Program-made: the position numbers and the translations under genes
The notes under the pieces: generated by a model
The model's input: the letters and a program-made list of their open reading frames with translations, nothing else
Told to the model about the DNA's origin: nothing
Database searches by the model: none
Shown here: in pieces, positions 2,951-60,688 of the stretch
How the letters are laid out: the number at the start of each line of letters is the position of its first letter
How positions within the stretch are numbered: position 1 is the first letter of the stretch
Source: Candidatus Palauibacter sp.
GTDB lineage: Bacteria; Gemmatimonadota; Gemmatimonadetes; Palauibacterales; Palauibacteraceae
DNA length: 64,000 bases
Reading direction: 5' to 3'
Assembly: GCF_965197445.1 (NCBI RefSeq)
Contig: NZ_CBDANE010000005.1
Coordinates: 139,877-203,876, forward strand

Positions 2951-4072
2951 ATGTGCTATTTTCAGCGTATGATGAAAACCCATGATTCAGTAAACGACCC
3001 AGGAATCGCCGCCTTGCACGCGGCCCGCGACCTGCTCGGACACGTGCCGCACCTGGAGGCCGGTGCGGTCCGCCAGGAGCACCGGCTCGGCCACGCTCGC
3101 ATCGACGGATGCATCGAGTTCGAGCACGGCGATGAGGCCTATGCCCTCCTCATCGAGGTCAAGCGGAGCGGTGCTCCTCGTTTCGTCCGTTCCGCAGTCT
3201 ATCAGCTCAAGGGATACCTGGCGCATGCTCGCGAGTCCGCCCCCGGGGACCCCGGCCAACGATGGATCCCCATGCTCGTGAGCCCATACTTGTCGCCCGA
3301 GTCTCGGTCGATCTGCATGGATCACGACGTCGCTTACCTGGACCTGGTCGGGAACGCACATCTCGCTTTCGATAACGTCTATATCGATCGGACCGTCGCT
3401 GACAGGCCCAAGTCTGCAACCCGCGCTCTAAGATCGATGTTCACGCCGAAGGCGGCCGCGATTCTCCGGGTGCTCCTTCGCGATACTGCCCGGGCATGGC
3501 GCGTAACGGAACTGGCGGAAGCGGCCGACGCGAGCCTCGGCCACGTGAGTAACGTTCGCAAAGCCCTGCTGGCGCGGGAATGGATCGAGACGCAGAAGGA
3601 CGGTGTCATCCTCGTCCAGCCGGACGCGCTACTGAAGACGTGGCGCGAGGAATACCGCAGGCCGACTGGCCGCCGCATCAGCGGGTACACGCTCTTCCAT
3701 GGCAAGCAACTCCACGAGCGGCTGTCGGGAAAGCTCAATTCGGAACCACAGCGTCCGCGCGCAATCTACTCGTCGAATTCAGCCGCCCAATGGCTGGCGC
3801 CCTTCCTCCGTGGTGGCACGCACAACTTCTACGCCGACGAACCGGGCGCTCGGGTGTTGAAGGAGGTGTTGAAGCTGACCCGTGCCGAGAAAGGAGCAAA
3901 TGTTACCGTGTGGGTCCTCAAGGATGAGAGTCTGCTCAAGGACGCTGTTGAGCCGGCGCCAAGCGTCTTCTGCACATGCCCGATCGTCACGTACCTCGAT
4001 CTCTGGAACGGCAACGATCGGGATCGTGAGGCGGCCGACCACTTGGCTTCGAGGTGCTTTCCGTGGCTGTGA
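2951..4072 (+). CDS. Predicted regulator with an N-terminal PD-(D/E)xK-like motif and a central winged helix. It is an AbiEi-like partner of the downstream nucleotidyltransferase.
   Basis: Candidate nuclease signature IDGCIEFEHGDEAYALLIEVKRSG (D...ExK). wHTH-like segment RVTELAEAADASLGHVSNVRKALLAREWIE. The 3' end overlaps the next ORF by 19 bp. The likely true start is ATG ATG AAA at about 2969. Confidence 0.5.
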   Translation: MCYFQRMMKTHDSVNDPGIAALHAARDLLGHVPHLEAGAVRQEHRLGHARIDGCIEFEHGDEAYALLIEVKRSGAPRFVRSAVYQLKGYLAHARESAPGDPGQRWIPMLVSPYLSPESRSICMDHDVAYLDLVGNAHLAFDNVYIDRTVADRPKSATRALRSMFTPKAAAILRVLLRDTARAWRVTELAEAADASLGHVSNVRKALLAREWIETQKDGVILVQPDALLKTWREEYRRPTGRRISGYTLFHGKQLHERLSGKLNSEPQRPRAIYSSNSAAQWLAPFLRGGTHNFYADEPGARVLKEVLKLTRAEKGANVTVWVLKDESLLKDAVEPAPSVFCTCPIVTYLDLWNGNDRDREAADHLASRCFPWL

Positions 4073-4926
4073 CGGAGCCTCAATCCGCCGGCGACTACGA
4101 TGATCGGACGACGGCGGCGGTCAAGTCCGTGTTGGTCGAGATCGGCCAGGTCCTCGGCAGCTTCAGGGGCAAGTTTGCAGTTATCGGCGGGGCTGTTCCC
4201 TGGCTGTTGCTGAGCGAAGCCGACATGCCCCATATCGGAACCCTCGATGTGGACCTCGGTCTCGACGCCTCCGCCCTGGGCGACGGCGAATACGTTCGAC
4301 TTGTCGAAGCCCTGCAGACACACGGCTACCAGCAACGGGAGAGTCTGCGGCGTTTCCAGCTCGTCCGCACCGTACCCACCAGGGATGGGGGACCCGACAT
4401 CGACGTAGTCGTCGACTTCCTGATGCCGCGCGACGCCGAGATTGTAAGGAACAGGCCGCCGCTCATCAGCCAGTTTGCCGTCCAGCGAGCCGACGGGGCC
4501 GACCTGGCGCTCAGATTCTATCAGATGGCCGCCATCGAAGGAGATATGCCCGATGGGGGCAGGAATCTCGTTCGTATCGCCGTTGCGTCGATTCCAGCCC
4601 TCCTGGCCATGAAAGGCTACGCCATCGCCAATCGGTTCAAACGCAAGGACGCCTATGACATCTACTATTCGATCCGGAATTTTCCGGATGGGATGGACGC
4701 ACTTGTAGAAGCAACCAGACCTCTTCTTGACGTACCATCGGCACGGCGAGGCTACTGTTTGATCGCCGACAAGTTCCGTGACGTCGAAGACTTTGGACCG
4801 ACGAGCGTCAGGCGGTTCGTGGAGGAAGCCGACCTGCTCGGCGACCGCACCGCGGATCAATGGCAGCAAGACGCCTTCGGACAGGTTGACGCATGGCTCA
4901 GAGAACTGGGCCTGAGGGTTACATGA
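4054..4926 (+). CDS. Nucleotidyltransferase, AbiEii/AbiGii-like (pol-beta superfamily)
   Basis: IGGAVPWLLLSEADMPHIGTLDVDLGLD matches the pol-beta pattern of GG/GS, a ~14-residue spacer, then DxD. The gene is translationally coupled to the upstream wHTH protein. Confidence 0.65.
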   Translation: MLSVAVTEPQSAGDYDDRTTAAVKSVLVEIGQVLGSFRGKFAVIGGAVPWLLLSEADMPHIGTLDVDLGLDASALGDGEYVRLVEALQTHGYQQRESLRRFQLVRTVPTRDGGPDIDVVVDFLMPRDAEIVRNRPPLISQFAVQRADGADLALRFYQMAAIEGDMPDGGRNLVRIAVASIPALLAMKGYAIANRFKRKDAYDIYYSIRNFPDGMDALVEATRPLLDVPSARRGYCLIADKFRDVEDFGPTSVRRFVEEADLLGDRTADQWQQDAFGQVDAWLRELGLRVT

Positions 4927-5097
4927 ACGCGGCGGTCAGGCGCGTATGCCGGACATGTACCGAAGGATACAAACTCCCTGCACGGCCATCAACTCGAATC
5001 CCTCGACGTGGTCGAGCGGCAGATCGCCGGTCCGGCCATCCATTGAGTCCCTGCTGATCGAGGCCGGGCGCGACTCCGGCAGCCCGGGAATGGACTG

Positions 5098-5529
5098 CTA
5101 CGCGCGCAACTTTCTCGATCCGAACCAGACGCCCACGGCCCCGATCAGCGGGTTGAGCCAGTTGAACCATGCCGGGTGGAGGGCGCCCGCGGTCGCCTCC
5201 ATCATCGACACGTCATCGGGGCGCGGTCCCGCCGGCATCTCCACCGGCATCAGGGCCCTCACCACCCCGAGTACGATCACCATGGCGATCAGAATCGTGG
5301 CGGCCCTGGCATCGTGCGCCACCCTGGCACAGACTCGTCCGCCGATGTACGCCGCCACGAGCCCGAGCACGCCCGAGCCGAGTGCCCAGCCGCCGGGTAC
5401 CTCCCACGAACCCGGCTGGAAGGCCCGCGAGGGCCCCACCGTCAGCCACAGAAGCGAGAAGAGTGCGAAAAGCACGGCGGCCATGGCAATGTAGCCGACG
5501 ATGGCGGCGAGGATGTTCCTGAGCATCAT
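5098..5529 (-). CDS. Small integral membrane protein, hypothetical
   Basis: Three to four hydrophobic helices (ILAAIVGYIAMAAVLFALFSLLWL, GSGVLGLVAAYIGG, ILIAMVIVLGVV). Start assumed at MMLRNI. Confidence 0.45.
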   Translation of the reverse strand: MMLRNILAAIVGYIAMAAVLFALFSLLWLTVGPSRAFQPGSWEVPGGWALGSGVLGLVAAYIGGRVCARVAHDARAATILIAMVIVLGVVRALMPVEMPAGPRPDDVSMMEATAGALHPAWFNWLNPLIGAVGVWFGSRKLRA

Positions 5530-5927
5530 GTGCCTCCCTGAAGGTTCTCCTCTGAAATCTGGATCAGGTTGCCGCACGAATCGTCGAAAACTGCGACAGT
5601 AACACTCCCGAGGTCTGGTGGCGGCTGCACGAATCGCACGCCTTTTGCCGTGAGACGCTCGTGCTCGGCTTCGATGTCATCGACTGCGAAGGAGGCACTG
5701 GGGATCCCGTCCTCCATAAGCGCAGTCTTGAACGGACGGACTGCGGGGTGGCCATCGGGCTCGAGCAGCAACTCCGTCCCCTCGGGAGCTTCCGGGGATA
5801 CCACGGTGATCCAGGCGTGATCTCCCATGGGGATGTTGTGCTTTACCCGAAAGCCGAGCGTCTCCGTGTAGAAACGAAGCGCCTTCTGTTGGTCGTCCAC
5901 GAAGACGCTGGTCAGGTGGATTCTCAT
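5526..5927 (-). CDS. VOC family protein (glyoxalase/bleomycin-resistance/dioxygenase fold)
   Basis: Typical VOC N-terminus VFVDDQQKALRFYTETLGFRV and a C-terminal half ASFAVDDIEAEHERLTAKGVRFVQPP...GNLIQI. Confidence 0.85.
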   Translation of the reverse strand: MRIHLTSVFVDDQQKALRFYTETLGFRVKHNIPMGDHAWITVVSPEAPEGTELLLEPDGHPAVRPFKTALMEDGIPSASFAVDDIEAEHERLTAKGVRFVQPPPDLGSVTVAVFDDSCGNLIQISEENLQGGT

Positions 5928-6235
5928 TTCCTTACGCCCTCATCCGTTGAGTGTGAAGTGTCCTCGTCTGTCGAGGTGGGCCACCGTTCCCCGATTGCCT
6001 TCAGCGGGGCGCCCTCGAACCAGTGGAGCTTCGACCTCCCCTCGCGCCTCGTGCGGATGAGCCCGGCGGCTTCCAGGACGTCCAGGTGTTGCGAGATCGC
6101 TTGCCGCGAGGAGTTGATCCCGTGTTTCATGGTCAGGCGCGCACAGAGTTCGAAGAGCGATTGGCCCGACCGATCGACGAGTTCATCCAGGATGGCCCGC
6201 CTGGTTCGGTCAGAGATCGCGCGATAAACGTCCAC
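5924..6235 (-). CDS. ArsR/SmtB family transcriptional regulator
   Basis: VYRAISDRTRRAILDELVDRSGQSLFELCARL...SRQAISQHLDVLEAAGLIRTRREGRSKLHWF is a canonical ArsR HTH. Start set at the in-frame GTG (VDVYRAI). The longer track ORF runs into the upstream repeat. Confidence 0.8.
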   Translation of the reverse strand: MDVYRAISDRTRRAILDELVDRSGQSLFELCARLTMKHGINSSRQAISQHLDVLEAAGLIRTRREGRSKLHWFEGAPLKAIGERWPTSTDEDTSHSTDEGVRK

Positions 6236-6237
6236 AT

Positions 6238-6300
6238 GCCAGCCTAAGGCAAGTGTCCACTTGCATGCCACGGCTTGATGATTATACAAGCGTGGACTTG
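6238..6300. promoter_or_regulatory. Putative ArsR operator/promoter with two direct repeats
   Basis: GTCCACTTGCATGCCA ... GTGGACTTGCATGCCA, about 30 bp apart. They flank TTGATGATTATACAAG, immediately upstream of the arsR-like gene. Confidence 0.4.
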
Positions 6301-6374
6301 CATGCCAACTCCTTCGGGTCGGTGATCGCCGCGAAGCTCCACCTGCTGGACATGCTGCTCGCCGCGGGCCAGCG

Positions 6375-6490
6375 CCGCTCACGATCGCGTCAGCCTCCGG
6401 AACCTGAACAATGCGAGCCACTGGTCGAAGGTGAGGGCGCGGGGCGGCCCGGAAGGATCGAACCTGAGATCTCGACGCAGCCGGCGAGCA
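6375..6490. repeat. 115-bp copy of the 3' end of the erm-like methyltransferase gene (third copy)
   Basis: About 90% identical to 12235-12350 and 17352-17465 (ACGATCGCGTCAGCCTCCGGAACCTGAACAATGCGAGCCACTGGTCGAAGGTGAG...GGAAGGATCGAACCTGAGATCTCGACTCAGCCGG). Similarity ends at 6490. Confidence 0.8.
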
Positions 6491-6494
6491 ACCT

Positions 6495-6532
6495 GTAGTT
6501 GACATTATGGAGACGATTCACGCAGTTTGTCA
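6495..6532. promoter_or_regulatory. Inverted repeat plus -35-like box upstream of the XRE-ImmA gene
   Basis: GTTGACA...(23 nt)...TGTCAAC, containing TTGACA. Confidence 0.35.
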
Positions 6533-6562
6533 ACCATCGTTTACGCGAAGAGAGGGGACGGC

Positions 6563-7642
6563 ATGTTTGGAAAACGACTACGGCTCGCCCGTAAACGCGC
6601 CGGCCTTTCCATGCGGGCGCTGGCCGAGCGGATGGATCCGAAAATCACCGCTCAGGCCATCAGCAAATACGAGGCGGGGAAGATGATGCCGTCTTCGGCC
6701 GTCCTGGTCGGTCTCGGGCAGGCTCTCGATGTGTCGCTGGACTTCCTCATGAGCTCCCAGGTCGAGGTCCTCGACGGCCTTGAGTTCCGGAAGCACTCCA
6801 GCACCTCCGCCCGGGATCGCGCCAAGGCCGAAGCCGTGCTGATCGACAACCTCGAGCGATATCTGACCATCGAGGAAGTCCTCGGTATTCCACCTGCGAG
6901 CGACCGTTTTGAAGGCCATCGGTACGACGGCGTTGCCGATGTCGAAGAGATCGATGACAGGGCCGATGAACTCCGCAACGCGTGGGACCTCGGCCTGGAT
7001 CCCGTGCCCAGCCTGTGCGCCCTCCTCGAGGAGAAGGGGATAAAGGTGATCGAAGACGATCTCCCCGAGCGCATCAACGGGCTGGCCTGCCGAGTCCTGC
7101 GAGAGGGCAAGCCGGTCGCCGACGCCGTCCTCGTATCGAGTCGGACCAACGTGGAGCGGAAACGATCCACCCTGGCCCACGAACTCGCGCACAGGATCAT
7201 CCGTTCCACCGGCAACCCGGCCATCAAGCTGGAAGCGGCCATGAACCGTTTCGCAGGCGCCTTCCTTGTCCCGGGCCAACATCTCATTCAAGAAGCCGGG
7301 GAAGGCCGCCGCCGCATCACCTATCATGAAATCGTCCGCCTCAAGCACATGTACGGCGTGTCAGCGGCGGCCATGCTGGTACGCCTTGGTCAAGTCGGCG
7401 TGCTGCCTCGTGCCGCGGTCCAGCGCGCGTTTCGAACCTTCGCCCGCTCCTGGCGCAAGTCGGAACCGGAACCCATTCACGGCAACCAAGGGTTCGCGGC
7501 GTTCGAGAAGCCTCGGCGCTTCAAGGGCCTCGTCTTGCGCGCCGTCGGCGAAGAGCTGATCTCGCCGGTTCGGGCGGCCACTCTCCTTAATGAATCCCTC
7601 GACGCGGTCGAGCAGCAGATCACCGGTCCGATCCACCAGTGA
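6563..7642 (+). CDS. Fused XRE-family HTH and ImmA/IrrE-family (DUF955) zinc metallopeptidase regulator
   Basis: N-terminal HTH_XRE (RLRLARKRAGLSMRALAERMDPKITAQAISKYEAGKMMP). The peptidase domain carries the HEXXH motif HELAHRI and the downstream ImmA-type segment AGAFLVP. Confidence 0.8.
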   Translation: MFGKRLRLARKRAGLSMRALAERMDPKITAQAISKYEAGKMMPSSAVLVGLGQALDVSLDFLMSSQVEVLDGLEFRKHSSTSARDRAKAEAVLIDNLERYLTIEEVLGIPPASDRFEGHRYDGVADVEEIDDRADELRNAWDLGLDPVPSLCALLEEKGIKVIEDDLPERINGLACRVLREGKPVADAVLVSSRTNVERKRSTLAHELAHRIIRSTGNPAIKLEAAMNRFAGAFLVPGQHLIQEAGEGRRRITYHEIVRLKHMYGVSAAAMLVRLGQVGVLPRAAVQRAFRTFARSWRKSEPEPIHGNQGFAAFEKPRRFKGLVLRAVGEELISPVRAATLLNESLDAVEQQITGPIHQ

Positions 7643-7861
7643 CGCGTGTCACTGTCAACGACGCTTCCTGCCTGATCGACCTCCGCAAGTTGGCTCGCCG
7701 TTCTACGAGCTGCCTGAACCCGCTCGCTCCGGAACACAAGGTCATCCGGGCAACCCTCCGAGCCTATTTCACACTCTACTTCACAAACGAGACACCCTGC
7801 GGTATGATTCCCTGGCGAGCCACCGCATAGCCACGCCGTTCATCGACAAACGAGCCATCAC

Positions 7862-8671
7862 GTGAATGCTGCCGACACGCCTCTGACCGGGCCGCCCCCG
7901 CCCGAGGTACCGCTGACTGACCCGCCGCTCGTGCGGGTCATCGCCCAGGTGCGCTTTCCGCTCATCGCGTCGTTGGAGAAGCGGGAGTTCATCGCGTCAT
8001 TTCAGGAGGCCATTCGGGAGTTCTACCCGGTGCTGCGTCCAGAGGAGGGACGCAGCGTCGTCCTGGGCTCACAGGGAGCGGTGGACACACGTTCGAACAC
8101 CTTATGGCGCTTCAACGAAGCGAGAGGGGCATGGCGTGTCACACTGGCACCCGACTTCCTCGCGCTGGAGACCACGAAATACACGAGCCGTGAAGACTTC
8201 ATGGAGCGCTTGAGGCTGGTCTTGGAAGCACTCAAGGAGCACGTCGATCCGCAGGTATTGGATCGCCTCGGCGTGCGTTACATCGATCGCGTGTCCGGGG
8301 AGAACCTGAGCGCTCTTCCCCAGCTCGTTCGCCCGGAAGTGGCGGGCATTCTGGGATCCCCACTCGCCGCACGTGCTCACCGCGCCGTCTCGGAAAACGT
8401 GTTCATTCTGCCCGGGAACGCGGGTCAGATTACCGCCCGCTGGGGGCTGCTGGCGCCGCGAAGCACGATTGACCCCGGGGCGCTGGACGCTATCGACGAG
8501 CCCAGCTGGATCCTTGATACCGACGCCTTCCAGTCATTTCAGACAGGCAGCCGGCGGCTCGATGTCGACTCGGCGGTCGAGCAGGCGCGAGGCTTCGCCG
8601 AACGCATCTACAGCATCTTCCGCTGGGCGGTAACGAATGAGTTTCTGCGACGGTACGGAGGTGACCCATGA
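7862..8671 (+). CDS. Conserved hypothetical protein, TIGR04255-like
   Basis: VRVIAQVRFPLIASLE...LWRFNEARGAWRVTLAPDFLALETTKY matches my recollection of TIGR04255. There is no catalytic motif, and the name is not verified. Confidence 0.5.
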   Translation: MNAADTPLTGPPPPEVPLTDPPLVRVIAQVRFPLIASLEKREFIASFQEAIREFYPVLRPEEGRSVVLGSQGAVDTRSNTLWRFNEARGAWRVTLAPDFLALETTKYTSREDFMERLRLVLEALKEHVDPQVLDRLGVRYIDRVSGENLSALPQLVRPEVAGILGSPLAARAHRAVSENVFILPGNAGQITARWGLLAPRSTIDPGALDAIDEPSWILDTDAFQSFQTGSRRLDVDSAVEQARGFAERIYSIFRWAVTNEFLRRYGGDP

Positions 8672-9381
8672 CCCTTGAATCCCTGCTACGCGAGTCGGCC
8701 GTCGGTGACGGAACGACATCCTTTTCCGGTCGCGCTGGCATCCGGGATCGTGCCTCGCTGTCGGTGATCATGGTAAGCGGTGCGTTGTCGATCGCCGGCA
8801 CGTCGTCCGCAGAGCCTACGACAATCTGGGGGGCACCGTACGTACACGAATCCGATACGACCGCTGGCGGACCAAGCCGCGACGCGGTGGCGACACAGAT
8901 GGAGAGCGAGACCGAGGCCACCCGTAAGGCCGTCTCTGAACTGCGTCGAATCTCTGGCCTGACTTGGGAACAGCTCGCCGGGCTGTTCGGGGTATCGCGT
9001 CGCAGCGTCCACTTCTGGGCCAGCGGGAAACCGCTGAACGCCGGCAACCACCAGCGGCTCATGCGTGTGCTGGATGTTGTCCGGGATGCCGACCGTGGCA
9101 CGGCACGCAGCACGCGTGCGGCTCTGCTCGATGCCCGTGCGGGTACGACTCCGTTCGAAATGTTGGCGGACCAGCAGTTTCGGGAGGCATATTTGGCTCT
9201 TGGTCGAGGGCGCACGCGCCTCGTGCCGGCGCTAACCCCGCTCAGTGCAGCGGCGCAGACGGCGCGTAAGCCCCTCCCGCCCGACGAGCTCTACGACGCG
9301 AAGAGCGACCGTGTACACCAGGAACCGGGGCGTGCACGCGCCGCTCGAACCGCAAGGGGCCAGCGGCGTGGGCGCGGTTGA
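8668..9381 (+). CDS. HTH (XRE-like) domain protein. Start overlaps the upstream stop (ATGA).
   Basis: LRRISGLTWEQLAGLFGVSRRSVHFWASGKPLNAGNHQRLMRVLDVV is an HTH_XRE-like segment. The N-terminal ~85 aa and the C-terminal Arg-rich tail are unassigned. Confidence 0.55.
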   Translation: MTLESLLRESAVGDGTTSFSGRAGIRDRASLSVIMVSGALSIAGTSSAEPTTIWGAPYVHESDTTAGGPSRDAVATQMESETEATRKAVSELRRISGLTWEQLAGLFGVSRRSVHFWASGKPLNAGNHQRLMRVLDVVRDADRGTARSTRAALLDARAGTTPFEMLADQQFREAYLALGRGRTRLVPALTPLSAAAQTARKPLPPDELYDAKSDRVHQEPGRARAARTARGQRRGRG

Positions 9382-10213
9382 AAGTGCCGGCGGTGAGCAG
9401 GTCGACGAGAGAATCGCGACTTGGCGTCAGGGCGACTGCGTCGTCGAGGACGACTGGTTTCTGTATCGGACAAGCGCGGAAAACCCGCTGACCGACGCCG
9501 GCAAAGCGGCGGTCGTTGAAGGAGCCGAGAACGCCGAGTCGTCCGTGCGCGGCTTCGCGGTCCTCACGCAGACCTGCGACCTGGTCCGAAGCTGCATTGA
9601 TCGCCCGTTCGCCGAGGTCAGCCCGCTGGTCGACGTGGATGATCGGGTGCTCCGCGAGATCGAGCGCGGGCGAAGGCCAAACTACGGCTTCATCCCGGGA
9701 GTGGCCGACCGCCGCCTCGTGGCAGAACTCGACCGAGTGATGACGGTCGAGAAGGCGGTCGTGGCAGGTTGGGAGCGGATCGAGGGATGCCGGACGGACG
9801 AGGAGATGCGTCGCTTCTCCCTCGCACTGGCCCGGAAGCGATCGAGGACGGCGTTCCCCGACGACTTTGTCGTGTTCGCCAGGCCGTTGATGGACCGGAT
9901 GTCGGAGAGACACGACAGGCAGAGCGATGAGGGGCGGGCCCTCCGCTCGCTCCGCGAAATCCGAGTTAGAGCGGCCCCATCGTGGGACGCCGATGCCGTG
10001 GAATTGATGTTCTGGTTCATCCGGAATGACGACGAGCCAGCATTCGAGACCGAAGACTGGGAGCACTGCCTGACAGCTCTGCCTCAGCCGCATTCGACAT
10101 CGGGGCGCTTCGTCCGTGTGGATGGCGTGGTCCTAACTCTGGATGACCTGACCGCCCGCGACTACGTCGAGAGCGACCCGCTCGATCTGGACCACCTGTC
10201 GACGCGGGGGTAG
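9368..10213 (+). CDS. Hypothetical protein with no recognisable domain. Its GTG start overlaps the stop of the upstream HTH gene.
   Basis: Intact ~280-aa ORF in a single frame, translationally coupled to the upstream gene. Acidic segments and a conserved-looking LTQTCDLVRSC motif are present. Confidence 0.45.
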   Translation: MGAVESAGGEQVDERIATWRQGDCVVEDDWFLYRTSAENPLTDAGKAAVVEGAENAESSVRGFAVLTQTCDLVRSCIDRPFAEVSPLVDVDDRVLREIERGRRPNYGFIPGVADRRLVAELDRVMTVEKAVVAGWERIEGCRTDEEMRRFSLALARKRSRTAFPDDFVVFARPLMDRMSERHDRQSDEGRALRSLREIRVRAAPSWDADAVELMFWFIRNDDEPAFETEDWEHCLTALPQPHSTSGRFVRVDGVVLTLDDLTARDYVESDPLDLDHLSTRG

Positions 10214-10371
10214 TAGGCACAGATCCCACTCCCCAACACCGCATCGGAACTCGCCGGCAGGTCAGATGAGGATGGACACGCCCCCCCGCTTGCCCCCCGA
10301 CTTGGCCCCAATAGGCTTCCCCTCGAGACCACACCTGCCCATCGCCACCTGAGCCGGACGTGATCGAAGCC

Positions 10372-10619: not shown

Positions 10620-11697
10620 CTAGAAGCGCAGCAGTGCCGCCGCCCAATGGAACCCGGCGCCAAATGCGGTAAGCAGGACCAGGTCACCGGGCTTGATCCG
10701 CCCCTGATCCCGGGCCTCCCACAAGGCCAGGGGCACGGACGCCGAGCCTGTGTTGCCATACTTGTGGACGTTGACGAAGACCCGTTCATCGGGGAGGTTC
10801 AGCCGTTTCCTGACCGCATCCAGGATCCGCAGGTTGGCCTGATGCGGCACGACGAGCGCTACGTCGTCGATGGAGACACCGGCCTTCTCCAGCACCTGGT
10901 GGGACGCCGCACTCATGCGGCTGACGGCCTCGCGGAATACCTCCCGTCCCCGCATGACGACATGTTTGTGGAGCCCTTGCTCCACCCGCTCGACGGTGGT
11001 GGGCACGCGCGTGCCGCCCGCCTCCACCCCGAGAATGTGACTCTTGCTGCCGTCCGTTCCCGCCGTAGCGGCCACGATTTCGACCGCGCCCGGGTCCGGT
11101 CCGACGACCGCCGCGCCTGCCGCGTCGCCGAAGAGTACACAGGTGTTGCGATCCTCCCAGTCCATGAGCCGGGTGAGGAGCTCCACGCCGATCACGAGCA
11201 CCCGGCGGCCGTCCGCGAGGGCCCGAGAGCGGGCGATGTCCAGTGCCAGCACGAACCCCGCGCAGCCGCTGCCGCCCAGGTCGTAGCACGGGATGTGGCC
11301 GACGCCGAGACGAGTCTGGACGTACGCCGCCGTATCGGGGATGAAGACCTCGGGCGTGTCGGTCGCAAGGACGATCTCGTCGATATCCGCAGGCTCGAAG
11401 GCGCCGTCGGCCAGAGCTGCCCGGGCTGCGGCCAGCGCCAGATCGGCCGTACTCTCTTCATCCCCTGCAATTCGGCGCGTGTGTATGCCTGTGCGCGTCA
11501 CGATCCATTCGTCCGAGGTGTCGACGTACTCCGTCCATTCGTCGTTCGTCATGACGCGCTCGGGCAGGTAGACGCCGAGGCCCAACAGGCCGATGGGGTG
11601 CGGGCTTCTGGTGCCTGGCTGGTCCACTTCGTCCTCGCCCTGGTGAGTGACCGCGCGGGTGTGGGGGATGCCTTTCCGGTTCGGATTGTAAGGCATT
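10620..11697 (-). CDS. fabH: 3-oxoacyl-ACP synthase III (KAS III / FabH family)
   Basis: IGLLGLGVYLPERVMTNDEW is the FabH N-terminus. Active-site region CYDLGGSGCAGFVLAL. C-terminal VVPHQANLRILDAVRKRLNLP...NVHKYGNTGSASVPLAL carries His and Asn of the Cys-His-Asn triad. The true start is uncertain because of a 40-aa N-terminal extension. Confidence 0.85.
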
Positions 11698-11921
11698 TGG
11701 TGGCCGCTTACGCGGAACCTCGTCGGAGTCCGATGGCCTCGCATGCCTGATACCTGACGGGATGAACCGCACGAGGGGCACATGTTCGAACAGGCACATA
11801 GACTTGGAGGGTTTCGCCGCCAGCCGGATTCCTGACACCTTGAGATGGCGCATCGACTCACTTCCGTGATGCGCGGCAGGAGGCCCGGACTGGAGCGTGG
11901 AGACGGCACTGGTCGCCTTCT

Positions 11922-12101
11922 CTACACCACCGCATGCCGCGGCGTGACTTGCTCGGCGATCTCGCGACCCGCCTCGATCGCCGTCCGGCGAAGCTCCCAG
12001 GTCTTCTGAAGGTTCAACCACAGTTGCGGCGTCGTCCCGAAGTACCTGGCCAACCGCAACGCCGTATCAGCGCTCACGCCGCGCTGGCCGTTGAGGATCA
12101 T
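11922..12101 (-). pseudogene. higA-type antitoxin fragment (C-terminal half only)
   Basis: The reverse strand translates to MILNGQRGVSADTALRLARYFGTTPQLWLNLQKTWELRRTAIEAG. This matches the second half of the HigA HTH, as in the intact higA at 16550-16840. No N-terminal half and no higB are present. Confidence 0.6.
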
Positions 12102-12237
12102 GGTTACCCGGGTGCACCGGCCTCATGCCGTTCCTCGCGTTCATGTCACACGCCTCTCAATGATAATCCACGACCTCGACCTCGCATGGCCCGTCGTCAC
12201 TCCAACGGAAGCTAGTGCTCCGATGCGCCATCGGCGC

Positions 12238-13500
12238 TTACGATCGCAGCAGCCTCCGGAACCTGAACAATGCGAGCCACTGGCCGAAAGTGAGGCCGCT
12301 GGGTGGTCCGGAAGGATCGAACCTGAGATCTCGGCTCAGCGGGTAGACTTGTGTTCGCGTGAATTCGGATCGCAGACACCGCCTGATCGAGCGGCCGTCG
12401 CGGCCGAAGGAACTCTTGATGAAGCGCCGGTAGTCACGGCCTGTAATCGGTCCACAAGCGGTCTGGTTCGACGGGCGAGCCAGAGCGCGACGGCGACCGG
12501 TCGCACCCACGCCACCGCCAGGCGTCAAAGGCCAGCCCGATCGACCTCGCCGCGGGCTATCCCCAGCTGCTGTCAGACGCGTCGATGCCACCTGTGTCGC
12601 CTGTGCTTGGCGGCCTCGGCTCAATCCGGCACCGTGCCTCTGAGCCGTCAGAGCGCGCCAAGTCCACGAGATCTGACTCGCCCGTTCTGTCGGAACCGAC
12701 CGCATCTGGTCAGGCGGAAGGAGGTCCAGGAGTGATCGCGGCCACGCTCTCGATCGTCGTCTGGTTCGTTGCCGCATGGCTCGCCAGCAGGCGGAGGAGC
12801 CTCTCGGAGTTCGGGATCGAGCACGGCGGGGTCCCCCGCGCAGATGGGTGCTGATCCCAACCGCCCGGTGGATCCTCGACCCAGGGGGGACACTTGGTGG
12901 ACCGCGTTCGGCCGACTTGAACGAGTTCTTAGACGGGAGTTAGCCGCCTTGGAATCGGTCCACAAGCAGTCTGGTCGACGCCGGGAGGGGGATCGAAGTC
13001 GGTACGGCAAAAGCGCCGCACGATCTCGATCTGCCACCACGGCTTGAGCAGCAGCGAGGACAGGGTCTCCCGGGAACAGGGACTGCCGGCAAACCGTTCG
13101 GCCGCTTCACGCTGGATCACGAGCCAGGCGTCCTGCGGCGGAGAACCTGCCTGGACAAGCCGCCGGACGATGGCGGCAGTCCGATTGAACGGAATGTTCC
13201 CCAGGACCTTGTAGGGGACATCGGGCAGCCGAAAACGCAGGAAGTCGGACCTGACGATCGTGACACGGTCGTCACTCGGGAAGCGCGTGCGAAGCGCCTC
13301 GGACAGCGCGCCGTCGAACTCTACCGCGACGACCTCACGGCATCGACGTGCCAGTTCTCGAGTGAGAATGCCACGGCCCGGCCCGATCTCGACGACCAGA
13401 TCGCTTCGTTTGACGGGAGCCTGAGCGATCAGGCCAGCCGCAAGCGAACCCTCGGCTGGATGAAACCATGTGAAGTCTTCGCCAGGACTAAGGAGGTGAA
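12238..13500 (-). pseudogene. Erm-like 23S rRNA (adenine-N6)-methyltransferase, copy 1. It is disrupted by a ~475-bp insertion and by replacement of its N-terminus.
   Basis: The C-terminal ~85 aa (12238-12500) and the central SAM/catalytic region (12976-13470: VVEIGPGRGILTRELARR, LGNIPFNRTAAIVRRL) are near-identical to the intact copy at 17353-18144. They are separated by inserted DNA at 12500-12975 and lie in different frames. Upstream of codon ~35 the sequence diverges from the intact copy and runs into IS-end repeats. Confidence 0.75.
12500..12975. mobile_element. ~475-bp insertion inside erm copy 1, flanked by a 22-bp direct repeat (AATCGGTCCACAAGCRGTCTGGT)
   Basis: Alignment of copy 1 against copy 2 (17540-17600) shows contiguous sequence in copy 2 where copy 1 carries 475 extra bp. 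The repeat occurs at 12459-12480 and 12949-12970. The insert contains a GGAAGGAGG RBS and a 44-codon TM-peptide ORF. Confidence 0.55.
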
Positions 13501-13559
13501 GACCGCAGCCTGACGCGCTGACCTCGGCGAGGCCGGGTGTCAGGTGATTACCGTTCTTG

Positions 13560-13660
13560 TACGCCCCGGCTTCGCCCGGAACCGGTGGACGACTCCGCCC
13601 GGAACCGGTGGACGCCTTGGCTCGGAATCGATGGACGACTTCGTCGGAATAGGCATATAC
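13560..13660. repeat. IS-end-like repeat cluster: an internal 23-bp tandem duplication plus a copy of the 880-940 element
   Basis: cggaaccggtggacgactccgcc|cggaaccggtggacgccttggctcggaatcgatggacgacttcgtcggaataggca. The minus-strand reading DEVVHRFR matches the C-terminal residues of the transposase fragment at 506-560. Confidence 0.55.
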
Positions 13661-13929
13661 GCCTTTAATTCCATGTCCCATCTACATGCAATAAGACCCC
13701 TGGCAACACCATGTGCTGACTCTTCACGGAGTTGCATCGAGAACATCATCTATCCCCCTCCAACGAATTCACAGGTGGCGTTGTCCAATATCCCAGGTTC
13801 TGCTGAACATCCAGACCGTCTACGTACACACTTGCTGTATTGCAGATCGGTGCCTCATGGCCATTCGGGTAAACACGGACAGAATCCCCGTTGGTCCACG
13901 CCTTGATCTCCGATGGCGCATGCTCACCC

Positions 13930-16979: not shown

Positions 16980-17342
16980 CGTGCAAAACGTTCAGGGATT
17001 CGGCGGGTTCTTCTTTCGGGCAAAGGACCCGAAAGGACTTGCGAAATGGTATCAGGATCACCTTGGCATCAATCCTGCTCCGACGAACATGGAGATGGCG
17101 CCTGGGTGACCGAGTCCGGGGTCACGGTTTTCTCACCCTTCGCTGCTGACACGGACTATTTCGCAGCGGACAAGACTTTCATGCTGAACTTCCGCGTGGC
17201 CGACCTGGACGCGATGATCACACAACTGAAGTCCGCGGATATCGAGGTCAGCCACGAAAGCGAGATGGAGGGTATCGGTCGCTTCGCCCGCATCCACGAC
17301 CCCGAAGGAAACGCGATCGAGCTTTGGGAACCCGCGTCGTGA
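16980..17342 (+). pseudogene. VOC/glyoxalase family gene with a frameshift near 17105
   Basis: Frame 1 gives VQNVQGFGGFFFRAKDPKGLAKWYQDHLGI and then a stop. Frame 2 continues with FMLNFRVADLDAMITQLKSADIEV...GIGRFARIHDPEGNAIELWEP, a typical VOC C-terminal half. This could be a real frameshift or a sequencing error. Confidence 0.55.
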
Positions 17343-17352
17343 GATTCGGAGC

Positions 17353-18144
17353 TTACGATCGCGTCAGCCTCCGGAACCTGAACAATCCGAGCCACTGGTC
17401 GAAGGTGAGGCCGCGGAGTGGTCCGGAAGGATCGAACCTGAGATCTCGACTCAGCCGGTAGATTTGCGTTCGCGTGAATTCGGATCGCAGACACCACCTG
17501 ATCGAGCGGCCGTCGCGACCGAAGCAACTCTGGATGAAGCGCCGGTAGTCCACGGCCTGGAATCGGTCCACAAGCGGTCTGGTTCGACGGGCGAGCCAGA
17601 GCGCGACGGCGTCGACGCTGGGAGGGGGATCGAAGTCGGTACGGCGAAAGCGCCGCACGATCTCGATCTGCCACCACGGCTTGAGCAGCAGCGAGGACAG
17701 GGTCTCCCGGGAACAGGGACCGCCGGCAAACCGTTCGGCCGCTTCACGCTGGATCACAAGCCAGGCGTCCTGCGGCGGAGAATCGGCCTCGACAAGCCGC
17801 CGGACGATGGCGGCGGTCCGGTTGAACGGAATGTTCCCCAGGACCTTGTAGGGGACATCGGGCAGCCGAAAACGCAGGAAGTCGGACCTGACGATCGTGA
17901 CACGGTTGTCACTCAGGAAGCGCGTGCGGAGCGCCTCGGACAGCGCTCCGTCGAACTCTACCGCGACGACCTCACGGCATCGACGTGCCAGTTCTCGAGT
18001 GAGAATGCCACGGCCCGGCCCGATCTCGACGACCAGATCGCTTCGTTTGACGGGAGCCTGAGCGATCAGGCTAGCCGCAAGCGACCTGCTCCGGAGGAAG
18101 TGCTGCGAGAGGTCCGCACGCCTGGGTGTCCGATGCCTGGACAC
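17353..18144 (-). CDS. Erm-like 23S rRNA (adenine-N6)-dimethyltransferase, RsmA/Erm family (intact copy)
   Basis: N-terminal LSQHFL (the Erm/KsgA QNFL-type motif). SAM-binding motif VVEIGPGRGILTRELARR. Catalytic motif LGNIPFNRTAAIV (NxPY/F). Erm-like C-terminal domain. 263 aa with a GTG start. Confidence 0.8.
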   Translation of the reverse strand: MSRHRTPRRADLSQHFLRSRSLAASLIAQAPVKRSDLVVEIGPGRGILTRELARRCREVVAVEFDGALSEALRTRFLSDNRVTIVRSDFLRFRLPDVPYKVLGNIPFNRTAAIVRRLVEADSPPQDAWLVIQREAAERFAGGPCSRETLSSLLLKPWWQIEIVRRFRRTDFDPPPSVDAVALWLARRTRPLVDRFQAVDYRRFIQSCFGRDGRSIRWCLRSEFTRTQIYRLSRDLRFDPSGPLRGLTFDQWLGLFRFRRLTRS

Positions 18145-56899: not shown

Positions 56900-59248
56900 A
56901 TGGATCGACGAGTGCTCTCGGTGGCGGCGGCGCTGGTCCTCGCGGTGCCGGCGGGCGTCGGCGCGCAGCAGTTCGGCGGTGCGCTGGCGGTGAGCGGCGA
57001 TCAGGTGCTGGTCGGCGAGGCCGGCAACGGGACGATGTCGGGGATCGTTTGGGTCTTCGGCCGAACCGCCGCGGGCTGGGCCGAGACAGGCCAGGTCACG
57101 GTGTCCGACGAGATACGGGTGCCGGACGGCTTCGGGCGCGCGATCGCCGCACGCGGGGAGTGGTTGTGGGCGGGCGCGCCGCTCGAAGGGGACGGCGCCG
57201 GCGCGGTCTACGTGTTCCGGGCGGACGGGTCGGGCGGCTGGGAGCAGGTCGCCCGGCTTGAAGCGCCGGGGGACGCGAGCGCGTTCGGGAGCGCGATCGC
57301 CCTCACCGGCGACGTAGCGATCGTGGCCGCACCCGGGGCGGAGAATGGCCGCGGGACTGTGTTCTCCTACGCCGTCGGCCCGGACGGGGGGTTGACCACC
57401 GGCCGGGCCGTGCGACCGCCGGACGGTGTGGCCGTCTCCGGTTTCGGCGCGGCGCTGGCGCTCGACGGCGGCACGCTGCTCGTAGGCACGCGCGAGGACG
57501 ATGGCGCGCCCCCCGCCGTGTTCGCGTTTGAGCCCAGCGGCGACGGCGCGTGGACGGCCGCCGGCCAACTCGAAGCGCCGTCGCTCTCGGAGCGGAGCAA
57601 CTTTGGCGCCACGCTCGCGCTGCGCGACGGTTTCGCGCTCGTGGGCGCCGCGACGATGAGGGAGAGCGGCGGAGCGGTGTTCGCGTTCGCACGCGGTCCG
57701 GAGGACTGGGCCCTGGAAGCCCGGCTCGGCCCGCTGCTGCCCGAACCCAACGCGCAGTTCGGGTCCTCCATCGGCTTTGATGGCGACGCGATCCTCATCG
57801 GGGCGGCGGGCAGTTCGTTCGGCGCCGGAACGCTGTACGCCTACCGGCGCGACGCGGACGGCCGCTGGAGCGAGGCGTCCGTACTGATGCGCTCGCCGCT
57901 CGGGGAGCGTTCCGGCTTCGGCAGCGCGACCGCCCGGTCAGGTGACCATCTCGTCATTGGGGCGACCGGCATGGATTCGCGCGCCGGCGCCGCTGTCGTC
58001 TACGAGCGGTCCGGCGGCGGCGCCTGGGAAGCGGCCGGAACTCTCGTGAACGACCACCGGGGCTTCCCCGCCATCGCGGGCGAGGAGATCGAGTGCACCG
58101 AAGGCCACGCCACGGTGTTCGAATGCCGGGACGTGAACATCACCGCGTTCATGCCGATCAAGGACCTTGGCGGCACCCGGGCCACGCGCGTCAACGACAT
58201 CTGGGGCTGGACGGACCCGGAAACGGGCCGCGAGATCGCGATCGTCGGCCGCACGGACGGCACCTCTTTCGTCGACGTCAGCGACCCCTACCGCCCGCGC
58301 TTTCTCGGCGACCTGCCGGCCACCGAGGGCTCGCGGCACATGATCTGGCGCGACATCAAGGTGTATCGCGATCACGCCTACATCGTCGCCGACGCCGCCC
58401 TCGAGCACGGGGTGCAGGTCTTCGATCTCCGGCAACTGCGAGACGTGGGGGACGAACCGGTGACGTTCGGGGAGACCTACCTCTACGACGGGATTCACTC
58501 GGCCCACAACATCGTCATCAACGAGGAGACCGGCTTCGCCTATACCGTCGGGAACAGCGGAGGAGGCGAGACCTGCGGCGGCGGCCTCCACATGCTGAAC
58601 CTCGAGGAACCCGGCCGGCCGGTCTTCGCCGGCTGTTTCGCGCAGGAGGGGACGGGGCGTCGCGGCACCGGCTACGTGCACGACGCGCAGTGCGTCACCT
58701 ACCGCGGGCCCGATACTGAACACGCCGGCAAGGAGATCTGCCTCGGGTCGAACGAGACGGCGTTCAACATCGCCGACGTGACGGACAAGGATGCGCCGGT
58801 TGCCCTGGCCACGATCGACTATCCGAACGTGGCCTATGCGCACCAGGGGTGGCTGACCGACGACCACCGCTACTTCTACATGAACGACGAGGGAGACGAG
58901 CCCCAGGGTCTCGTGCCCGGGACGCGCACGCTGGTGTGGGACGTGACGGATCTCGACGACCCCATCCTCGTCACCGAATACATCGCCGAGACGACGGCCA
59001 CGGACCACAACCTCTACATCGTCGGCGATCTCATGTACCAGTCGAACTACTCGGCCGGATTCCGGGTCCTCGACATCTCGGACCCCGAGAACCCGGTCGA
59101 GATCGGCTTCTTCGACACTTCGCCCTACGAGGGCGGCGCATCGTGGAGTAACTACCCGTACTTCGAGAGCGGGACGATTGCGGTGACGGGAACGGGCGAC
59201 GGGCTCTTCCTGCTCAAGAACATGGCGAGACCGCGCCTCGTGCCGTGA
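56900..59248 (+). CDS. Secreted beta-propeller protein: N-terminal FG-GAP-like repeats fused to a choice-of-anchor B (LVIVD) domain
   Basis: Signal peptide MDRRVLSVAAALVLAVPAGVGAQ. Repeated FG...G blades. The C-terminal 400 aa is paralogous to 31525-32868 (NDIWGWTDPETG, HMIWRDIKVY, GLHMLNLEEP, FRVLDISDPENP). Confidence 0.7.
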   Translation: MDRRVLSVAAALVLAVPAGVGAQQFGGALAVSGDQVLVGEAGNGTMSGIVWVFGRTAAGWAETGQVTVSDEIRVPDGFGRAIAARGEWLWAGAPLEGDGAGAVYVFRADGSGGWEQVARLEAPGDASAFGSAIALTGDVAIVAAPGAENGRGTVFSYAVGPDGGLTTGRAVRPPDGVAVSGFGAALALDGGTLLVGTREDDGAPPAVFAFEPSGDGAWTAAGQLEAPSLSERSNFGATLALRDGFALVGAATMRESGGAVFAFARGPEDWALEARLGPLLPEPNAQFGSSIGFDGDAILIGAAGSSFGAGTLYAYRRDADGRWSEASVLMRSPLGERSGFGSATARSGDHLVIGATGMDSRAGAAVVYERSGGGAWEAAGTLVNDHRGFPAIAGEEIECTEGHATVFECRDVNITAFMPIKDLGGTRATRVNDIWGWTDPETGREIAIVGRTDGTSFVDVSDPYRPRFLGDLPATEGSRHMIWRDIKVYRDHAYIVADAALEHGVQVFDLRQLRDVGDEPVTFGETYLYDGIHSAHNIVINEETGFAYTVGNSGGGETCGGGLHMLNLEEPGRPVFAGCFAQEGTGRRGTGYVHDAQCVTYRGPDTEHAGKEICLGSNETAFNIADVTDKDAPVALATIDYPNVAYAHQGWLTDDHRYFYMNDEGDEPQGLVPGTRTLVWDVTDLDDPILVTEYIAETTATDHNLYIVGDLMYQSNYSAGFRVLDISDPENPVEIGFFDTSPYEGGASWSNYPYFESGTIAVTGTGDGLFLLKNMARPRLVP

Positions 59249-60493: not shown

Positions 60494-60688
60494 GGAGGCG
60501 AGGGTTCGGCGGGGGCGGTACTGGTGTACCCGGTGTGGACTCGACACCCGACCGGCGGGGTTCAATTCCCCGCGCCTCCACCTCTCCCTCAACGAGGGTT
60601 CGGCGGGGGCGGTACTGGTGTACCCGGTAAGGGCTTGACACTCGACCGGCGGGGTTCGATTCCCCGCGCCTCCACCTTCCCCTCGACG
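60494..60688 (+). repeat. Tandem repeat (~94-bp period, two full units plus a partial) of tRNA-like modules with canonical T-arm and acceptor sequences
   Basis: Each unit contains CGGGGTTC(A/G)ATTCCCCG (a perfect T stem-loop), then CGCCTCC-A-CC, plus a conserved GGTAC-TGGT-GTACC hairpin. Only unit 1 has a complementary 5' GGAGGCG acceptor strand and a 5-bp/7-nt anticodon-like hairpin (GGTGT-GGACTCG-ACACC). Unit 2 lacks both. Confidence 0.5.

Follow-up and report, generated by a model that had tools for sequence, protein, structure and literature searches.

Peptidases of the M78 (ImmA/IrrE) type cleave repressors of the XRE family, and tripartite toxin-antitoxin (TA) systems, such as HipBST, PaaR-PaaA-ParE, and the toxin-antitoxin-chaperone systems, are built from three coupled genes that include a dedicated helix-turn-helix (HTH) protein and a protein with a toxin fold. 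Genes coding for an HTH joined to DUF955 (COG2856) and paired with genes of COG2405/DUF3368 have been predicted to form TA systems (PMC5499597), and the ImmA-domain protein RmrA is an antitoxin that partners with many different toxins (PMC10440598). Both kinds of system are relevant to a stretch of 64,000 nucleotides of Candidatus Palauibacter sp. (contig NZ_CBDANE010000005.1, positions 139,877 to 203,876), referred to here as the window, in which gene A (6563-7642), coding for an XRE HTH fused to an M78 zinc peptidase, is followed on the same plus strand by three coupled genes, B (7862-8671), C (8668-9381), and D (9368-10213). All four genes that the original prediction had placed in this region are present. 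That prediction had also read them as one module, with A as the regulator of the triad B-C-D, and it is this part that the comparison across genomes does not support. Taking the sequences and a structural model together, it is somewhat probable that two independent, horizontally mobile modules have been joined here by rearrangement, and that the second of them is a TA-like addiction or abortive-infection cassette that would be autorepressed by C. The triad resembles the tripartite TA systems in having three coupled genes with a dedicated HTH protein and a protein of toxin fold, and differs from them in that only the generic HTH relates their components to B-C-D and in that the first gene here belongs to TIGR04255. 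The window has a G+C content of about 63%, and its nearest relatives are Candidatus Palauibacter and other Gemmatimonadota.

The B-C-D cassette and its control region

Loci for comparison were retrieved with D, taking one genome per species (80 loci; 225 confirmed D matches), and the proteins of the window were then compared with them by tblastn. The retrieved loci belong to Gemmatimonadota, Acidobacteriota, Planctomycetota, Myxococcota, Gamma- and Alphaproteobacteria, Cyanobacteria, Actinomycetota, Deinococcota, and Nitrospirota. In about 79 of 83 loci, spanning at least nine phyla, the three genes are neighbors in the order B, C, D, which bears out the proposal that they form a conserved neighborhood. 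The shared unit measures about 2.5 kb. According to blastn against loci L005 (91%) and L012 (89%), complemented by alignments of the upstream and downstream regions, its edges lie at 7742/7750 and 10207/10232, which delimits an autonomous cassette (7742-10232, plus strand) composed of a leader with a promoter and a repeat, the three coupled genes, and about 20 nt of 3' flank. The overlapping stop and start codons noticed at the outset are real, with 4 nt shared by B and C and 14 nt by C and D in the window, and they recur across the loci: of 81, 74 have the 4-nt B/C overlap and 68 an overlap of 11-17 nt between C and D. Comparison with relatives gives ratios of nonsynonymous to synonymous substitution (dN/dS) of 0.13-0.38, indicating purifying selection on all three genes. 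No family of flanking open reading frames (ORFs) recurs in more than 7 of 84 loci, and the nearest neighbors are heterogeneous.

The family is large, with 2274 homologues of D recovered by a word-indexed search and 1206 clusters at 50% identity by an exhaustive one, nearly all of about 280 aa. At greater divergence, the same triad is headed by TIGR04255 genes that are 21-37% identical to B on the nine plasmids that were read, whose hosts are Rhizobium, Sphingomonas, Paenarthrobacter, Vibrio, Mesorhizobium, Acinetobacter baumannii, Klebsiella pneumoniae, and Pseudomonas putida. Of the 14 plasmids in which B is matched, 12 have a D-family match on the same strand, within about 1.4 kb after it. 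Aligned to the D profile, the third protein reaches an hhalign probability of 94% for the Vibrio triad and of 48% for that of Acinetobacter; both proteins keep the motifs WxQG, SQSCDI, and the C-terminal LDxLS, and also RxAxP. The cassette is found on integrative and conjugative elements, on conjugative plasmids, and near TA and restriction-modification genes. D has no match in phage records and occurs at only 3 loci in IMG/VR, and E. coli genomes contain no DNA match to the Vibrio cassette. No component model of PADLOC-DB v2.0.0 matches B, C, or D (0 families, E up to 0.1), and no paper was found for TIGR04255, for CHP04255, or for the RefSeq accessions that were tried. The triad appears to be a self-contained, self-regulated mobile cassette of many phyla, and the suggestion that it was undescribed holds for the known defense models and for the literature searched.

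The leader of the cassette carries a direct repeat, TTCACA-N6-TTCACA, with a period of 12 bp (7768-7785, plus strand). In 72 of 78 loci, a pattern search found the exact repeat no more than 200 nt ahead of B, and the 2.06 Mb of locus sequence, searched on both strands, contain no match besides these 72; in the 64-kb window it occurs a single time. The second repeat unit doubles as the -35 hexamer of a sigma-70-like promoter (7780-7808, plus strand), in which TTCACA is separated by a 17-nt spacer from TATGAT and 10 of 12 consensus positions are matched. This is one of 2 sigma-70-like matches between 6300 and 10500, where 0.3 would be expected, and position counts show a TAnnAT consensus 17 nt past the second repeat in most loci. 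The Gemmatimonadota loci have in common a leader of about 110 nt upstream of B, starting at window position 7748, for which Rfam contains no family. Distant triads have analogous direct repeats with a period of 11 or 12 bp, and the sequence of the repeat changes together with the recognition helix of C: TTCACA accompanies RRSVHFW in the main family, TGTGTAA accompanies RKTL(Y/H)NW in Vibrio and Acinetobacter, and TGTAAAC accompanies RQxIYNW in Klebsiella and P. putida. This covariation suggests that C binds the repeats, which would be its operator, and autorepresses the operon.

The four proteins were searched against the profile libraries Pfam, NCBIfam, and PADLOC-DB v2.0.0, and B, C, and D also against PHROGs. 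B is an acidic protein of 269 aa (family median isoelectric point, pI, 5.15) for which the proposed likeness to TIGR04255 is a full family match, with 151.7 bits versus a cut-off of 30 over positions 2-250 of the 252 of the model. It has no sequence match in Pfam, PHROGs, or the PDB. A GyrI-like fold was considered and dropped, no GyrI-like model of Pfam being matched, and so was a partition system, given that no Walker motif was seen in B on inspection.

C is a basic protein of 237 aa (family median pI 10.45) with a variable N-terminus that contains a conserved GTSS, a central HTH at about residues 85-175, and a conserved basic C-terminal tail. In the window protein, the XRE-like HTH that had been noticed inside it gives sub-threshold matches only (HTH_3, E 0.0027; PF20432, 16 bits versus a cut-off of 25.8), and it is the family that substantiates it: HTH_3 is matched weakly by 17 of 34 members and the Xre-like-HTH model PF20432 by 11 of 34, and the HTH is strongly conserved as ELRRxSGLTWEQLAxLFxVSRRSVHFWASGKPL. 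The best PDB match of the family profile is the antitoxin MbcA (6fkg_C, E 1.1e-3), over the HTH and the helices that follow it, and weak matches are found to the MqsA and HigA-like antitoxin models TIGR03830 and TIGR03070 of NCBIfam. The likeness to the MbcA/ParS/Xre antitoxins of Xre-RES systems stops at this point, since profile searches detected no RES domain in B, in D, or in their families, C has extra conserved N- and C-terminal segments, and all the matches are below the curated cut-offs. C is also the fastest evolving of the three proteins, with a mean column identity of 44% versus 62% for B. From its sequence, C would be both the autorepressor and the antitoxin-like component of the cassette. 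A membrane anchor in its N-terminus was considered and rejected (median maximum 19-mer hydropathy of 1.14, with 6 of 78 members reaching 1.6).

D, of 281 aa, is the candidate effector. The original prediction had seen no effector domain in it and had raised the question of a housekeeping family. At the level of sequence both points stand, given that D has no match in Pfam, NCBIfam, PADLOC, PHROGs, or the PDB; an hhalign comparison of B with D gives no signal either. As to an effector domain, the fold tells otherwise. The AlphaFold2 model, built on an alignment of 120 sequences (an earlier one of 17 sequences gave a predicted local distance difference test score of 42 and was unusable), is composed of an N-terminal SH3-like barrel of the MazF/Kid/CcdB fold, as identified by fold comparison, a helical linker, and an alpha/beta C-terminal domain. 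A fold search of BFVD returned weak PemK-like phage matches only. Q21, G62, C70 (in a TQTCD motif), and R160 are invariant in the family, and the nearly invariant residues include W19, D23, Q68, T69, D71, R74, K129, R156, and R199. Compared with MazEF, Kis-Kid, and CcdAB, the cassette has three genes and not two, D, with its 281 aa, has the helical linker and the alpha/beta C-terminal domain in addition, and the HTH of C is of the XRE/MbcA type and not of the AbrB or ribbon-helix-helix fold.

Several loci depart from the common arrangement. Upstream of the intact cassette of L007, two pieces (239-746 and 2261-2522) are 93-96% identical to parts of C and D and represent a decayed second copy. 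In a metagenome-assembled genome of Planctomycetota (L063, 2098-3489), no stop codon separates B from C, which share one reading frame and may be fused. A variant of the triad without B, in which C has an N-terminal extension of 160 aa, is found in L053 (6806-8008), and in L071 (29-1186) the place of B and C directly upstream of D is taken by an ORF that resembles a DDE-type transposase, by resemblance and with no family-library search. On the K. pneumoniae plasmid pVA126-339 (L099, 1-5837), the triad has a tape-measure gene, the sole annotated phage gene there, about 3 kb upstream and xseA about 2.3 kb downstream, with guaB farther on, so that it might occupy an accessory-gene site at a prophage edge.

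Gene A and its truncated partner

The product of gene A (359 aa) has the two domains that had been attributed to it, both above the Pfam cut-offs: HTH_3 (PF01381) at residues 6-62, with 49 bits versus 23, and Peptidase_M78 (PF06114) at residues 156-275, with 51.5 bits versus 22. The peptidase domain is also intact, as had been supposed, with the zinc motif HELAH at residues 206-210 and E224, within EAAMNRFA, which by the family motif would be the third zinc ligand. Among defense libraries, the best match of A is RmrA, the antitoxin of RosmerTA, with 14 RmrA models of PADLOC matched and a best E of 4.6e-43; the PADLOC matches to capP (8e-12) and capH (6e-6) are weak, and the score for the spr1629 family of repressors/antitoxins (NF052239) is below the curated cut-off, with 81.8 bits versus 335. 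The family of A is widely distributed and highly conserved, and the dN/dS of A versus relatives (0.10-0.13) indicates purifying selection.

Homologues of A with 77-78% identity, in Immundisolibacterales and Caldilineaceae, overlap by 4 nt with a following gene for a DUF3368 PIN-like protein of 167-169 aa; the Palauibacter homologue L096 has no DUF3368 neighbor. Upstream of the A homologue in L091-L093, a ThiF-family gene, a ScoMcrA-like gene, and tyrosine integrases are found near the intact pair, which indicates that the pair rides an integrative element. In the window, the stop codon of A overlaps by 4 nt with an ORF of 63 codons (7639-7830, plus strand), recognized as a remnant of such a toxin gene because it begins like the DUF3368 proteins encoded in L091 and L094. 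The likeness covers residues 1-17 (M..VNDASCLIDLRK) and ends there, so that only the first 17 codons (7639 to about 7690) are native to DUF3368, the remainder being the junction and the leader of the cassette read in frame. The copy of this ORF in L007 has an earlier stop, and none of the neighbors of A in the window matches a PADLOC model of RmrT.

Upstream of A lies the inverted repeat TTGACA-N23-TGTCAA (6499-6533; arms GTTGACA and TGTCAAC), with its hexamers at 6499-6504 and 6528-6533. The promoter-like repeat that had been described is therefore present. Homologues of A from other phyla also have GGTTGAyA...TGTCAACC conserved in front of them, so that the repeat is probably the operator and promoter region of gene A itself and not of the triad. 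Inside it, on the minus strand, a strong sigma-70-like promoter (TTGACA-18-CATAAT, 6533-6504) matches 11 of 12 consensus positions, so that binding of A there could also affect transcription to the left, where a divergent ArsR-type HTH gene and a glyoxalase/VOC gene are located (5526-6505, minus strand). Further upstream, the 51 nt at 4996-5046 match the last part of gene A (7592-7642, stop codon included) with 84% identity and are what remains of a second gene of the A type.

This first module (6499 to about 7690) would be a decayed two-gene TA locus, in which A, of the RmrA/ImmA type, would normally neutralize and co-regulate the overlapping DUF3368 PIN-like toxin while binding its own inverted-repeat operator. 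Because the toxin gene is cut after codon 17, A would now be an orphan. The likeness to RosmerTA and to the predicted pairs of HTH-DUF955 with PIN-like proteins (COG2405/DUF3368, DUF4411) lies in the XRE HTH fused to an intact M78 domain, in the strong RmrA matches, and in the downstream partner that overlaps by 4 nt in homologous loci, a pairing described for those systems (PMC5499597, PMC10440598). The difference lies in the partner toxin, which is reduced here to its 17 native codons and leaves no functional pair, and in the missing RmrT match. The XRE HTH and the M78 peptidase are also shared with CapH/CapP of CBASS, ImmR/ImmA, and IrrE/DdrO, but in A the two domains are fused in a single protein, and no CBASS, SOS-type, or integrase target operon is conserved beside it, the PIN toxin being found there instead. 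PADLOC shows no operon of a CD-NTase and effector next to A, since B, C, and D match none of its models.

Competing accounts of the cassette

In the reading that we favor, the second module (7742-10232) would be an autonomous three-gene cassette transcribed from its own promoter. The basic protein C would bind the two repeats, one of which is the -35 hexamer, and thereby autorepress the operon, and its conserved N-terminal motif and basic C-terminal tail would keep the two acidic proteins, B and D, in an inactive state. If C were lost or titrated, because the element is lost, a phage infects the cell, or stress sets in, growth would be inhibited by D, either alone or together with B. D would then act on a protein target, as CcdB does, RNA cleavage of the MazF type being less likely. 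The cassette would then behave as a tripartite TA-like addiction or abortive-infection module. The more specific proposal, that TIGR04255, the HTH protein, and D constitute an undescribed and widespread tripartite TA or anti-phage family, in which D would work by a non-canonical mechanism centered on its invariant cysteine and the repressor would read the 12-bp repeat, is put forward tentatively.

A number of observations weigh against this reading. Neither D nor 32 members of its family match MazF/PemK (PF02452) or CcdB (PF01845) with E up to 0.05, and hhalign of the D profile versus E. coli MazF and F-plasmid CcdB gives no signal (probability below 1%). When the sequence is mapped manually onto the secondary structure of the model, the catalytic Arg and Thr positions of MazF are not conserved in D. 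The protein is, moreover, acidic, with a pI of 5.0 and a median of 4.7 for the N-terminal domain. These features set D apart from the toxins of MazEF, Kis-Kid, and CcdAB, and the acidic domain and the non-conserved catalytic positions make canonical RNA cleavage by D seem unlikely. As for an association with defense, about 10% of the nearest neighboring ORFs match defense-associated models (AbiE, PARIS AriA, methyltransferases, PDC candidates), a proportion that stands without a proper baseline. A and the triad move as a unit in three Palauibacter genomes, and A has remained under purifying selection after the loss of PIN. Finally, an HTH gene in the middle of the gene order also fits a toxin-first pair formed by B and C.

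This last point leads to a different distribution of roles, in which B would be the toxin and C the antitoxin, in the toxin-first order of HigBA and MqsRA, and D an accessory protein (a sensor, an adaptor, or a second regulator) that reuses a MazF/CcdB-like barrel. B does directly precede the HTH gene, with the 4-nt overlap that most loci retain, C has its weak matches to MqsA and HigA-like antitoxin models, and B is the most conserved of the three proteins. The loss of B, as would be expected of a toxin, is tolerated in L053, where C and D are kept, and D is acidic and appears to lack the MazF catalytic residues. B, however, contains no recognizable toxin domain, whereas D is the only component with a toxin-type fold, and the order of C followed by D with an overlap is the canonical layout of an antitoxin followed by its toxin, so that these roles for B and D are rather unlikely.

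It may also be that the triad is not toxin-based and serves, from a self-repressed promoter, an accessory function of mobile elements, such as establishment, anti-defense, or exclusion. The triad is often found beside genes of the conjugation or leading-region type (TraG_N, TraH, and TraF; an ArdC-like gene with a methyltransferase; a gene for a single-stranded DNA-binding protein; MT-A70; a coupling protein of a type IV secretion system), the triad of K. pneumoniae is close to prophage tail genes, and B and D are acidic and show no catalytic signatures. Many copies are nonetheless chromosomal with no mobile-element genes around them, the cassette is almost absent from phage and viral collections, and the compact, coupled, and putatively autoregulated layout, together with the MazF/CcdB fold and the MbcA-like HTH, is typical of TA modules. 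We consider a function of this kind doubtful.

There remains the regulation of the triad by A, as originally proposed. A gene of this type is found beside the triad in 4 of 84 loci, of which three are close relatives with one block of 3.75 kb and the fourth, L012, has a different M78 gene. The block (6477/6484-10225), which comprises A, the PIN remnant, and B-C-D, is common to the window, L004, and L007 at 94% despite different flanks, and the truncation of PIN is common to all three copies. L005 and L012 share the B-C-D block alone with the window, the A copy of L005 being 7.7 kb away. The M78 gene of L012, whose end lies about 37 nt ahead of the cassette, is probably degenerate, since it lacks an HTH and is interrupted by an in-frame stop. 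The arrangements in L012 and in the window, L004, and L007 indicate that the cassette has landed twice just downstream of an M78-type gene, and this, together with the selection on A after the loss of PIN and the fact that no terminator is predicted between A and B, which lie on the same strand, keeps a co-option of A in this lineage among the rival explanations. The XRE-like nature of C, which is that of the repressors cleaved by such peptidases, and the weak capP and capH matches of A point in the same direction. On the family-wide evidence, though, the triad does not need A. That A senses damage or infection as an XRE/M78 regulator and then de-represses or activates the triad is very unlikely, and would amount at most to a lineage-specific co-option in Palauibacter, given that about 80 of 84 triad loci lack A, that the conserved partner of A is DUF3368, that its inverted repeat travels with A and not with the triad, that in every phylum the triad comes with a promoter, a repeat, and an HTH protein of its own, and that the M78 gene of L012 looks degenerate.

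Surroundings and significance

The region had been described as rich in TA, abortive infection (Abi), and insertion sequence remnants. An AbiEi/AbiEii-like pair, a HigA-like fragment, and repeats are indeed found, but no transposase was identified in the part of the window that was examined. The pair (2951-4926) consists of overlapping genes with weak matches to AbiEi_2 and to AbiEii, a nucleotidyltransferase toxin, and is probably an Abi module or a TA module of type IV. Immediately after the cassette, a FabH/KAS-III-like gene (10620-11909, minus strand) is followed by a C-terminal fragment of 59 aa of an XRE/HigA-like HTH protein (11922-12101, minus strand). A direct repeat of 117 nt is present in three copies that are 88% identical (6368-6484, 12227-12343, and 17342-17458), the first two of which bracket a segment of 5.9 kb with A, the triad, the FabH-like gene, and the HigA fragment; one copy is also found 1.3 kb downstream of the triad in L007. 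The repeat belongs to no Rfam family, contains no tRNA according to ARAGORN, and could be an attachment site-like element or one resembling repetitive extragenic palindromes or miniature inverted-repeat transposable elements. A segmental duplication relates 12231-12495 and 12974-13273 to 17346-17910 at 92-98% identity; the first copy is interrupted by an insertion of about 480 nt. The duplication covers the 3' part of an rRNA-adenine-dimethylase-like gene (12929-13681, minus strand) that also matches mad2 of PADLOC. The sole tRNA genes of the window, tRNA-Phe(GAA) at 57223-57304 and tRNA-Thr(GGT) at 60494-60582, are distant from the cassette.

For the scanning of genomes, this locus calls for caution, given that an XRE-M78 gene that adjoins an operon is not necessarily the regulator of that operon. 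For the family itself, TIGR04255, an NCBI annotation family of no known function, now heads a fixed cassette with a cis element and a partner of toxin fold, and what were hypothetical proteins become a testable system in which a candidate repressor, its DNA site, a candidate effector, and invariant residues are defined. The hosts include cultivable or clinically relevant organisms, with triads on K. pneumoniae pVA126-339, an A. baumannii plasmid, and P. putida p716811-VIM, and in Vibrio, Rhizobium etli, and Chroococcidiopsis PCC 7203. If the cassette is a TA or defense module, it would represent a new tripartite architecture and a divergent use of the MazF/CcdB fold, and if the triads form a tripartite TA or anti-phage family, this would be the first functional assignment for TIGR04255.

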